DNA of 64,000 nucleotides from Escherichia coli (GTDB lineage Bacteria; Pseudomonadota; Gammaproteobacteria; Enterobacterales; Enterobacteriaceae), in NCBI RefSeq assembly GCF_030013205.1, contig NZ_CP122648.1; one strand, given 5' to 3'. The notes under the pieces were generated by a model. It did no database searches. It was given only the letters and a program-made list of their open reading frames with translations, and was not told the DNA's origin. Shown here piece after piece: positions 51,912 through 54,839 of this stretch. Numbering within the stretch: the first letter of the stretch is position 1; the number at the start of each line of letters is the position of its first letter. The translations under genes and the position numbers were made by a program.

Positions 51912-52676
51912 TTACTTACCAGAGGCGATACGATCACGGATGTGTTGCGCACGCTCTGTTGATGGTGGGTGAGAGTCAAACATGGACTGGGTACGACCGC
52001 CATCCAGGCTGGCCAATTTTTCAAAGCTGCCAACCAGCCCCTGGGTGCTGATGCCACGTTTCTTCAACAGTTCAAAGGAGAAATCATCTGCTTCGGACTC
52101 TTTATCGCGGGAGTATTTAGCATTGATCGCGCCTTCTGCGATATCACCTAATTGTGAGCGAGAAAGCTGGGAAGCCACACCGCTGGTAGCGGAAATCGCA
52201 TCACGTGCGGCAACGATCGCATAAGAAGCTTTCATTTCAGCCAGCGAGTGACCCAACGCGACGTGGCCCAGTTCATGACCCAGAACGCCTTCAATTTCGT
52301 TGTCGTTCATCATGTCCATCAGGCCACTGTAGACACGAACACAGCCGTTCGCCATCGCCCATGCGTTGACGTCGCTGGTCATATAAACCTTATAGTTGAC
52401 CGGCGTGCCATTAATATTGTTACCCAATGCTTTGGCGATTTTTGCCAGACGTTTACCGTACTTGCTGGATTTACTTGCGACTTGATTGCCGCTGTCCATT
52501 TCGGCACAGCCCTGATTGGCAATCGCTTTTGCATCAGCATCGCTTAACGTTGCTGCTTTATAGGCATTTAAACCTGAGCTGATAGCCATATTGGTATCAA
52601 TACCGTGGGTATTTTGACACCCTGTCAGTAATGCTGCAGAAGCCGCAATCGCCAGCAGTAATTTAGTATTCTTCAT
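51912..52676 (-). CDS. ycaL: M48-family zinc metalloprotease lipoprotein YcaL
   Basis: ORF track 51912..52700 trimmed to ATG at 52676 (MKNTKLLLAIAASAALLTGC lipobox); 254 aa; HELGH zinc motif (HELGHVALGH); matches E. coli YcaL. Confidence 0.92.
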   Translation of the reverse strand: MKNTKLLLAIAASAALLTGCQNTHGIDTNMAISSGLNAYKAATLSDADAKAIANQGCAEMDSGNQVASKSSKYGKRLAKIAKALGNNINGTPVNYKVYMTSDVNAWAMANGCVRVYSGLMDMMNDNEIEGVLGHELGHVALGHSLAEMKASYAIVAARDAISATSGVASQLSRSQLGDIAEGAINAKYSRDKESEADDFSFELLKKRGISTQGLVGSFEKLASLDGGRTQSMFDSHPPSTERAQHIRDRIASGK

Positions 52677-52774
52677 GTGAATCATCCGTTGATTAATCAT
52701 ATATAAATATTATGTATCAACAACTTACATTGACAAGCGACGCTACCATTAATCAAAATGACTCACAAGGTCCG

Positions 52775-53485
52775 AATAAATATCCTCCGGCATAGCCGGA
52801 GGTTTTTCAAATGCGCCTATAAGGCTCTCTTACCAGCCGCGCCCTAACAGGCGCACACGATCTGACATTTGCATCCAACTTCGTTACTTACGGCCCGTAA
52901 ACGGGCTGCCCGGATAGGGAATCGATAACTGCTCTCCCATTTTATCCTCTTCAAGCTGGTGCTTTATGTAATCCTGTATCTTCGCCGTGTTCTTACCCAC
53001 CGTATCGACGTAGTACCCTCTGCACCAGAACTCTCTGTTCCTGTATTTGAATTTCAAATCACCAAACTGCTCGTAAAGCATCAGACTGCTTTTCCCTTTC
53101 AGATATCCCATAAAGCCGGATACGCTCATTTTGGGCGGGATCTCCACAAGCATATGGATATGATCTGCACAGCATTCAGCTTCAAGAATCCGTACGCTTT
53201 TCCACTCACACAGCTTTCTCAAAATACTGCCTATTGCTCTACGCTTCTCTCTGTAGAACACTTGTCTTCGGTATTTTGGCGCAAAAACTATGTGATATTT
53301 ACAGTTCCATCGGGTGTGCGCTAAGCTCTTTTCGTTCCCCATTGGGACCCCCTTTTGATTTCTTGTTTGACACTTGCAGTTGCCAGACCGCAAGGTGTTT
53401 TAACAAATCAAAAGGGGTTTTAATAACTGGCTCAAAGCTGAAAGCTTTCCGGAACCCCCAGCCTAGCTGGGGGTTTTCTGTGCAC
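52775..53485 (-). mobile_element. IS200 insertion sequence (IS200/IS605 family), about 0.71 kb, tnpA only
   Basis: Contains a 152-aa Y1/HuH transposase ORF with the recalled hallmark features of IS200 (twin subterminal GC hairpins at 52784..52802 and 53455..53473, and an RBS-occluding inverted repeat in the tnpA leader). Boundaries estimated (+/- about 20 bp) from hairpin positions and the canonical ~707-bp length; not confirmed by alignment. Confidence 0.7.
52884..53342 (-). CDS. tnpA: IS200 transposase TnpA (Y1 HuH single-strand transposase)
   Basis: ORF track 52884..53393 trimmed to ATG at 53342 preceded by AAGGGGG RBS; protein MGNEKSLAHTRWNCKYHIVFAPKYRRQVFY...ADHIHMLVEIPP...YPGSPFTGRK matches the recalled IS200 TnpA (HuH motif HIH, catalytic Tyr region); 152 aa. 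Confidence 0.9.
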   Translation of the reverse strand: MGNEKSLAHTRWNCKYHIVFAPKYRRQVFYREKRRAIGSILRKLCEWKSVRILEAECCADHIHMLVEIPPKMSVSGFMGYLKGKSSLMLYEQFGDLKFKYRNREFWCRGYYVDTVGKNTAKIQDYIKHQLEEDKMGEQLSIPYPGSPFTGRK

Positions 53486-53555
53486 AAAAAAAACGCCGAC
53501 AATGTGCCGACGTTTTGATAAAGAAAGATTTGGCTATTTATTGCCCGTTGTTCAT

Positions 53556-54839
53556 TCAGGCTGCCTGGCTAATCCGCGCCAGCTGCTCGAAATAATCCGG
53601 AAATGTTTTGGCCGTACATTTGGGATCAAGAATCGTCACTGGTGTATCTGACAACGCCACCAGCGAGAAACACATCGCCATCCGGTGATCATTGTATGTC
53701 GCGATCTCGGCAAAGTTCAGTTTTTCCGGTGGAGTGATACGAATGTAATCGTGCCCCTCTTCTACTTCCGCACCAACTTTACGCAGTTCTGTTGCCATCG
53801 CAAACAGGCGATCGGTCTCTTTAACACGCCAGTTATAGATATTGCGCAGCGTGGTGGTGCCTTTTGCAAATAACGCCGCCGTGGCAATGGTCATCGCCGC
53901 ATCGGGAATATGGTTCATATCCATATCAATAGCGTTCAGTTCACCACGCGTGCAGGAAATATAATCGTCGCCCCAGCAAATAGTCGCGCCCATTTTTTCC
54001 AGCACATCAGCAAAGCGAATATCACCCTGCATACTGTTGCGTCCAATGCCGGTCACTTTTACAGTGCCGCCTCTGATTGCTGCTGCTGCCAGGAAGTAAG
54101 AAGCCGAAGATGCATCGCCTTCGACCAAATAAGTACCCGGAGACTGATAAGACTGCCCGCCTTTTACGACAAATTGTTGATAGTGCTGATTTTCAATTTC
54201 AACACCAAACGTCTTCATCAGATTGAGTGTGATGTCGATATAAGGTTTAGAAACCAGATCGCCTTTAATACGAATAACCGTATCTTCCGGCGCAAGAGGC
54301 GCAGTCATTAATAGTGCGGTGAGGAACTGGCTGGAAACGGAGCCATCAACGTCAACGTTGCCGCCAGTAAAGCTGCCCTGTAAACGCAATGGCGGATAAT
54401 TTTCTTGTTCCAGGTAAGTGATCTTCGCCCCGCCCAGGCGCAGCGCATCCACCAGATGACCAATCGGGCGCTCTTTCATACGCGGCTCACCAGTCAGCAC
54501 AATATCATTGCTACCCAGACAAAGAGCTGCCGCCAGCGGGCGCATTGCCGTTCCGGCGTTTCCGAGGAACAACTCCAGGGCACCTTCTGCGTGTAATGGA
54601 CCGCCGTTACCGATAATTTCGCAACGCGTACGATCAGCTGAAAGCGTATAGCTTACCCCTAACGCTGCTAATGCATTCAGCATATGGCGCACGTCATCGC
54701 TATCCAGCAGATTGGTTAATACTGTTTTGCCGTGTGCTAATGCCGCCAGCAATAAAGCGCGGTTAGAAACGCTCTTGGAACCGGGCAGATTAATAGTGCC
54801 ATCGACACGAGCGATGGGTTGTAACGTCAGGGATTCCAT
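53556..54839 (-). CDS. aroA: 3-phosphoshikimate 1-carboxyvinyltransferase (EPSP synthase)
   Basis: 427-aa [60 protein letters not shown]...; matches E. coli AroA. Confidence 0.97.

Follow-up and report, generated by a model that had tools for sequence, protein, structure and literature searches.

In the spacer between aroA and ycaL of E. coli, a small transposase gene (tnpA) is bracketed by two GC-rich hairpins, and the locus raises the question of what these hairpins are: ends of a mobile element, transcription terminators, belonging to either the element or the host, or palindromes formed by chance. They were studied within the window, i.e. the whole stretch of 64,000 nucleotides analysed, and in related loci from other genomes. 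The explanation that best accounts for them, and which is held with considerable confidence, is that they are the hairpins at the left end (LE) and at the right end (RE) of an IS200 copy, probably recognized by TnpA, by analogy with related elements, and also active at the RNA level. As LE and RE hairpins of IS200 they are already known: the ends of this element and the mechanism of its family are textbook knowledge. Coordinates of the relevant features are collected in Table 1.

Table 1. Features of the IS200 copy and of its insertion site (window coordinates; "IS nt" counts from the left end of the element)
Feature	Position	Strand	Description
IS200 element	52775..53485	minus	711 bp; LE at 53485, RE at 52775
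RE tail	52775..52783	minus	ATATTTATT; ends in TTATT, a pentanucleotide resembling a right cleavage site
RE subterminal hairpin	52784..52802	minus	8-bp stem CCTCCGGC/GCCGGAGG, top-strand loop TAT; IS nt 684-702
A5 tract	52803..52807	minus	directly 5' of the RE stem; candidate right guide
tnpA	52884..53342	minus	152-aa Y1 HuH transposase; HUH residues H61/H63, catalytic Y125
Inverted repeat I1	53349..53417	minus	SD-sequestering stem-loop, by published position; 16-nt arms, 94% complementary; IS nt 69-137
LE subterminal hairpin	53453..53475	minus	core 8-bp stem 53455..53473, top-strand loop TAG; IS nt 11-33
LE terminal 12 nt	53474..53485	minus	GTGCACAGAAAA on the top strand; A-tract 5' of the core stem, candidate left guide
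aroA intrinsic terminator (host target)	53486..53516	minus	hairpin 53490..53516; T8 at 53486..53493 on the top strand

An IS200 copy between aroA and ycaL

The top strand of IS200, i.e. the active, tnpA-sense strand, corresponds to the minus strand of the window, where the neighbourhood comprises rpsA, cmk, ycaL (start codon at 52676), the 152-aa ORF, aroA (stop at 53556) and serC. E. coli K_EC180 has an identical region (100%), and there PGAP annotates the ORF as an IS200C family transposase. In a K-12-like strain the empty spacer reads GGTCCG-A8-CGCC, and contains neither hairpin, a point which the first-pass annotation had proposed to check; the filled spacer of the window reads GGTCCG-AA-TAAATATCC...TGTGCAC-A8-CGCC. 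Comparison with IS200-free E. coli spacers thus reveals an insertion of 711 bp, with an ambiguity of 2 nt (AA) in the placement of its ends. The ambiguity is settled by three features of other copies: position 52775 corresponds to the common alignment start of other E. coli IS200 copies; in 6 out of 6 copies from other E. coli loci the tip ...ATATTTATT is followed by unrelated DNA; and in distant relatives homology ends exactly 9 nt past the RE stem. An element of 709 bp, flanked by a target duplication of 2 bp, was considered and rejected, because the TT in question is the conserved RE tip, found also at unrelated loci. No target-site duplication is needed, as the filled and empty sites show that the 711-bp insertion can be placed without duplicated bases, and the ends, GTGCAC... 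and ...TTTATT, do not form terminal inverted repeats. Five of the 6 other E. coli copies are also 711 bp long, while the remaining one (L085) carries a 1-nt deletion in the LE hairpin.

Given these boundaries, both hairpins lie inside the insertion. The estimate first derived from the hairpins (52784..53473) was right in assigning them to the element, not in its extent: they are subterminal, and the element continues beyond them on both sides. For the window, this fixes the boundaries of IS200, and shows that neither the terminator of aroA nor the promoter region of ycaL was disrupted. The start codon of ycaL is 98 nt downstream of the end of IS200 (window 52676..52775), and a promoter-like site located between them (52736..52707, minus strand) is undisturbed; the ycaL ORF in the ORF list starts at 52700, and is longer than the one beginning at the annotated start, 52676. 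The aroA-ycaL site is filled in 52 of 5426 complete E. coli genomes (about 1%), by which the copy is judged to be a lineage-specific insertion. The number of IS200-matching places per E. coli genome, using window 52600..53650 as query, has a median of 2 and reaches 36.

IS200 is the namesake of the IS200 group, within the IS200/IS605 family, and is close to Yersinia IS1541; its size is reportedly given as 707-711 bp in a review by Beuzon et al. (2004). The residues H61-I-H63 and Y125 may be read directly from the TnpA translation, which matches the Pfam family Y1_Tnp (PF01797) with an E value of 3.8e-38, over profile positions 2-121 of 121. Among PDB structures, TnpA of IS608 (E 4e-19) and of ISDra2 (E 2e-16) are matched, two homologues whose crystal structures include end hairpins. 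As judged from its sequence, tnpA is an intact Y1 HuH transposase gene.

The element shares with IS200 the single tnpA, the LE inverted repeat, the SD-sequestering stem-loop and a match to STnc490; from the IS200 of Salmonella enterica and E. coli it does not differ in anything substantive, being just another copy, located at aroA-ycaL. The Salmonella element is 707 bp long, versus 711 bp here, and its SD-sequestering stem-loop was published at nt 69-138 (PMC4513863). Rfam family RF01405 (STnc490 / art200 region) matches 53352..53475 on the minus strand, with 146.4 bits (gathering score 56, E 3e-31): the first helix of the match is the LE hairpin, and inverted repeat I1 overlaps the same match. 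Two other Rfam matches, RmaA and MIR827, were dismissed, as they score below gathering. According to the literature, STnc490/art200 runs antisense to the 5'UTR of tnpA. Here, the model hits the tnpA-sense strand and takes in the LE hairpin, located upstream of the start reported for tnpA (about nt 40); it appears, therefore, that the Rfam model either stands for the sense strand or has a wrong extent. A second inverted repeat (TGCGCCTATAAGG / CCTAACAGGCGCA, 13-nt arms, 85% complementary) is found at 52812..52855, past the tnpA stop and before the RE hairpin; relatives have, in the corresponding position, a small hairpin of the GGGC-TAT-GCCC type.

Structure and conservation of the two hairpins

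On the plus strand, the RE hairpin reads CCTCCGGC-ATA-GCCGGAGG, followed by TTTTT at 52803..52807, and the LE hairpin reads CCCCCAGC-CTA-GCTGGGGG (53455..53473), followed by TTTT at 53474..53477. The LE stem lengthens to 10 bp through an additional AA/TT (AACCCCCAGC/GCTGGGGGTT, 53453..53475). The two hairpins start 671 bp apart, with tnpA lying between them; the LE core stem is 12 nt, and the RE stem 9 nt, away from the corresponding end of the element. The initial description of both as perfect 8-bp, GC-rich stems with 3-nt loops, accompanied by runs of five and four T's and about 670 bp apart, agrees with the sequence. Their assignment to the same strand holds for loops and flanks, which are asymmetric, but not for the stems, which, being perfect, fold on either strand, and the T-runs are located on the strand opposite to tnpA.

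Five perfect 8-bp hairpins with a 3-nt loop are present in the 64-kb window, and only these two feature 7 or more G:C pairs. In 100 mononucleotide shuffles of the window, a mean of 1.1 such hairpins was found, with 0.05 GC-rich ones; two GC-rich hairpins were found in none of the shuffles. Folding as single-stranded DNA yields -11.7 kcal/mol (z -2.9) for the left end and -10.0 kcal/mol (z -3.65) for the right one: for both ends, 0 of 200 shuffles matched the value. The LE and RE hairpins of the window are identical at 14 of 19 positions and, as read from the sequence, both differences within the stem are compensatory.

Relatives were obtained by a scan of one genome per species; the 80 loci recovered encode TnpA at 66-94% identity, and belong to Enterobacterales, Vibrio, Clostridia, Veillonellales and other taxa. 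Their top strands share a constant arrangement: the left half may be written as flank / GT-n6-GAAAA-(CCnCnnnn-TAG-nnnnGnGG)-TT ... tnpA, and the right half as tnpA ... GAAAAA-(CCnCCnGC-Tnn-GCnGGnGG)-ATATTTATT /, where hairpins are in parentheses and the slash marks the boundary of the element. Hairpin positions are fixed: 11-12 nt separate the start of the element from the LE core stem, and 9 nt separate the RE stem from the other end. About 10 loci with an 11-nt LE lead, mis-anchored by a fixed 12-nt LE offset, were re-anchored on the G of the GT start.

Both stems are maintained through compensatory changes. Among 46 distinct sequences of the LE stem, pairing amounts to 99.1%, and 6 of the 10 pairs have been altered on both sides; among 53 distinct sequences of the RE stem, it amounts to 100%, and 4 of the 8 pairs have been altered on both sides. 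The percentages of pairing are inflated, and partly circular, as the hairpin finder demanded Watson-Crick stems, by which G.T intermediates are also hidden. Four copies with a G.T mismatch (L010, L011, L025, L062) and several truncated copies fall outside the hairpin set. The covariation score is 0.496 for LE, versus 0.096 in shuffled and at most 0.061 in slid alignments; for RE it is 0.456, versus 0.105 in shuffled ones. The positions CCnCnnGn, plus the initial T of the loop, are invariant in both LE and RE. Furthermore, LE and RE hairpins are more similar within an element (mean Hamming distance 2.17) than between elements (2.65), a result reached by 0 of 10,000 permutations, although this and the other permutation figures are not to be read as probabilities, because the relatives share a phylogeny. 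Position, covarying stems and the LE/RE core shared in 80 relatives, along with the presence of a Y1 HuH tnpA, support the fit to the subterminal hairpins of the IS200/IS605 family suggested at first reading.

Some of the copies are decayed (L004, L009, L011, L038, L057, L059, L062, L082): L004 and L009 have lost the 5' arm of the LE hairpin, and RE is missing in L038, L057, L059 and L082.

Candidate guides and the role of the hairpins

The plus-strand T-runs are A-tracts on the active strand, at the position of guide sequences. The guides of IS608 are the four bases found 5' of each hairpin foot, and they pair with the cleavage sites (PMC3201880, PMC5934647); the LE A-tract of IS200 sits in the place of the IS608 guide GL, 5' of the hairpin foot (PMC3201880, PMC5934647). 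LE positions +9 to +12 are A in 56-57 of 57 relatives, and the RE A-tract is nearly invariant, GAAAAA being the majority form. On the side of the putative cleavage sites, practically all relatives have an RE tail of 9 nt, and TTATT is the terminus of 40 out of 65 elements. The 5' flank, immediately before the left end, conforms to TTNTT: T is found at positions -5 to -1 in 53, 53, 38, 58 and 51 of 59 loci, with position -3 being variable; in the window, the flank is T8.

In 91% of cases (A:T 39, G:C 7, C:G 2), position -3 of the RE guide is Watson-Crick compatible with tail position 5, at which the terminal pentanucleotide begins. A further covariation links this guide position to the base located directly 3' of the stem (mutual information 0.64, a value attained in none of 300 permutations). 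The covariation of guide and tail is suggestive of guide pairing; it comes from few independent lineages, one of which (guide TAACAA) does not fit. The covariation of guide, tail and stem flank has the same topology as the A+42.A+17:T-4 base triplet of IS608 (PMC5934647).

Elements of this family are reported to have their active strand on the lagging-strand template (PMC5027513). In the window, GC skew of the plus strand is negative in 6 of 7 windows of 16 kb; the minus strand accordingly has the composition of a leading strand, which places the top strand of IS200 on the lagging-strand template, as weak evidence from a single locus.

End hairpins are needed for TnpA binding in all the family members studied (PMC3201880, PMC6006769, PMC7290912), while hairpin binding and cleavage of single-stranded DNA, on the top strand only, were shown for IS608 and ISDra2 only (PMC3201880, PMC2806898). 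In the literature searched, no experiment was found on binding or cleavage of the hairpins described here by IS200 TnpA. By analogy with these two elements, TnpA would bind the IS200 hairpins and the guides would pair with their targets: when the top strand becomes single-stranded, each monomer of the dimeric Y1 HuH TnpA would take one hairpin, and the A-tract 5' of each stem would serve as guide, base-pairing with a T-rich cleavage site. The left cleavage site would be the flanking TTNTT (here provided by the T8 run), and the right one the element's own TTATT, ending 9 nt past the stem; Tyr125 would then cut and rejoin the top strand, in a "peel and paste" reaction. For IS200 itself, a mini-element retaining nt 1-163 and 566-707 was found to transpose in the presence of TnpA, but not of Y125F (Ellis et al.; PMC4513863), a mutant used as catalytically dead control (PMC4513863); the cis-acting sites therefore reside within the hairpin-bearing segments.

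The resemblance to IS608 of Helicobacter pylori and ISDra2 of Deinococcus radiodurans is not limited to the homologous Y1 HuH TnpA: in all of them the top strand carries a subterminal hairpin at either end, and insertion takes place, without target duplication, 3' of a short specific sequence abutting LE. A short tract complementary to the cleavage sites also lies at the hairpin foot, on its 5' side, in IS200 as a candidate guide. Details, in contrast, differ. The IS200 stems are perfect, 8-10 bp long, with 3-nt loops, whereas those of IS608 are imperfect and contain a bulged base, and recognition may therefore differ in its details. The distance between cleavage site and stem is 12 nt at LE (core stem) and 9 nt at RE, compared to 19 and 10 nt in the IS608/ISDra2 paradigm; the cleavage motif is T-rich, TTNTT / TTATT, instead of TTAC/TCAA or TTGAT; and tnpB is absent from IS200.

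At the RNA level, the LE inverted repeat (nt 12-34) is known to act as a strong bidirectional rho-independent terminator, at which about 85% of incoming transcripts end (PMC4513863, PMC5435999). The LE hairpin found here agrees with the published nt 12-34 to within 1 nt; it is followed by T4 on the plus strand and by TTCC on the tnpA-sense strand, and was not flagged by the terminator scan, an outcome attributed, in our reading, to the 10-bp stem, which absorbs two of the T's. The RE hairpin was flagged by the same scan as terminator-like on both strands; no experiment on its terminator activity was found in the literature searched. As a terminator, the left hairpin shields tnpA from transcription originating outside, and the right one has the appearance of a terminator in both directions.

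That the hairpins be only terminators or insulators, the left one blocking read-in and the right one ending the tnpA transcript, with no recognition by the transposase, is the main alternative. In its favour, terminator activity is experimentally established for the left hairpin (PMC4513863, PMC5435999), the right one is terminator-like in both directions, and both share with intrinsic terminators a GC-rich stem-loop lying beside a T-rich or A-rich tract. In the tnpA-sense direction, however, the left hairpin is followed by TTCC and not by a U-tract, and termination leaves unexplained the fixed distances of 9 and 11-12 nt from the ends, the shared CCnCnnGn-T core, the similarity between the hairpins of the same element and the covariation of guide and tail. 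It also disregards the need for such hairpins in TnpA binding, common to the family (PMC3201880, PMC6006769, PMC7290912). Termination without recognition is therefore regarded as improbable, and a dual role, as transposition end and as terminator, is the best reading of the hairpins.

The appearance of intrinsic terminators might also suggest that the aroA-ycaL spacer had one or both hairpins of its own, as host terminators, and that the IS was inserted between them, the more so as a genuine aroA terminator is located 5 nt beyond the left end. This is refuted by the empty sites, in K-12-like, BL21-like and the remaining matching genomes, where neither hairpin is present, and the hairpins travel with IS200 at six other E. 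coli loci and at 80 loci of other taxa; unlike host terminators, they are mobile, sit at fixed distances from the ends and share a sequence core. The probability left to a host origin is very small. Smaller still, and practically negligible, is that of chance palindromes: about one perfect 8-bp hairpin with a 3-nt loop is indeed expected per 64 kb, but the occurrence of two GC-rich ones at a distance of 671 bp was not reproduced in any shuffle, and both hairpins are conserved, with covariation, across the family. End hairpins of IS200, with a role in both transposition and termination, thus remain the preferred reading.

Besides the identification of the hairpins, the comparison produced by-products which, if unpublished, are possibly useful: the A-tract guide facing TTNTT/TTATT, the covarying, triplet-like position and the almost general placement behind intrinsic terminators. 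They translate into testable predictions for the IS200 transposition reaction, never reconstituted so far, and into a rule for annotating the ends of elements of the IS200 group.

Insertion behind host terminators

IS200 is inserted directly 3' of the T8 of the aroA terminator, which is left intact. The terminator exists in the empty site as well, folds as DNA to -8.2 kcal/mol (z -5.5) and is flagged by the terminator scan. The same location, directly behind a host terminator hairpin and its T-tract, is observed in 6 out of 6 other E. coli copies, including those behind uhpT and sseA.

The association extends to the relatives. Since a strict "terminator-like" classifier, based on perfect stems, undercounts (49%), folding energy was used instead, in comparison with controls: the 45 nt located 5' of LE fold to -14 kcal/mol or below in 86% of 57 diverse flanks (loci L003-L088), versus 3-10% of controls, consisting of 3' flanks and of 45-mers, either random or with a final TTNTT. 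When the threshold is eased to -8 kcal/mol, a hairpin is found in 63 of 65 5' flanks. The insertion junction is located at a median of 6 nt (IQR 6-8) past the last G:C pair of the host hairpin, and the IS200 copies are co-oriented with the hairpin that precedes them.

These data may be accounted for, tentatively, by a form of "terminator-homing" in the IS200 group, in which the A-tract guide, along with TnpA, would read the T-tract behind a GC hairpin in single-stranded DNA; although conceivable, this is somewhat less likely to be true than not. Insertions of this kind would land directly behind host intrinsic terminators, in the orientation of the terminated gene; the terminator would stay intact, and the element would be transcriptionally insulated. 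The association may reflect either targeting or the survival of harmless insertions. Nothing relevant to terminator targeting by IS200 or IS1541 was found in the literature searched; terminator-like palindromes next to IS1541 were reportedly described by Odaert et al. in 1998. True targeting would explain the wide persistence of the nearly dormant IS200, and would have a counterpart in group IIC introns, which home to terminators.

The right end of IS200, with a hairpin and, 9 nt later, the end of TTATT, is itself shaped like the target of the element. In two loci, an LE-like GT...GAA-hairpin-TT is found directly after an RE-type TTATT: in L009 it lies just 3' of RE, in L028 about 74 nt past the tnpA stop. 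Such RE-LE junctions are as expected for tandem insertion behind the right end of another copy, or for the trace of a circle junction, and they fit with the resemblance of RE to a target.
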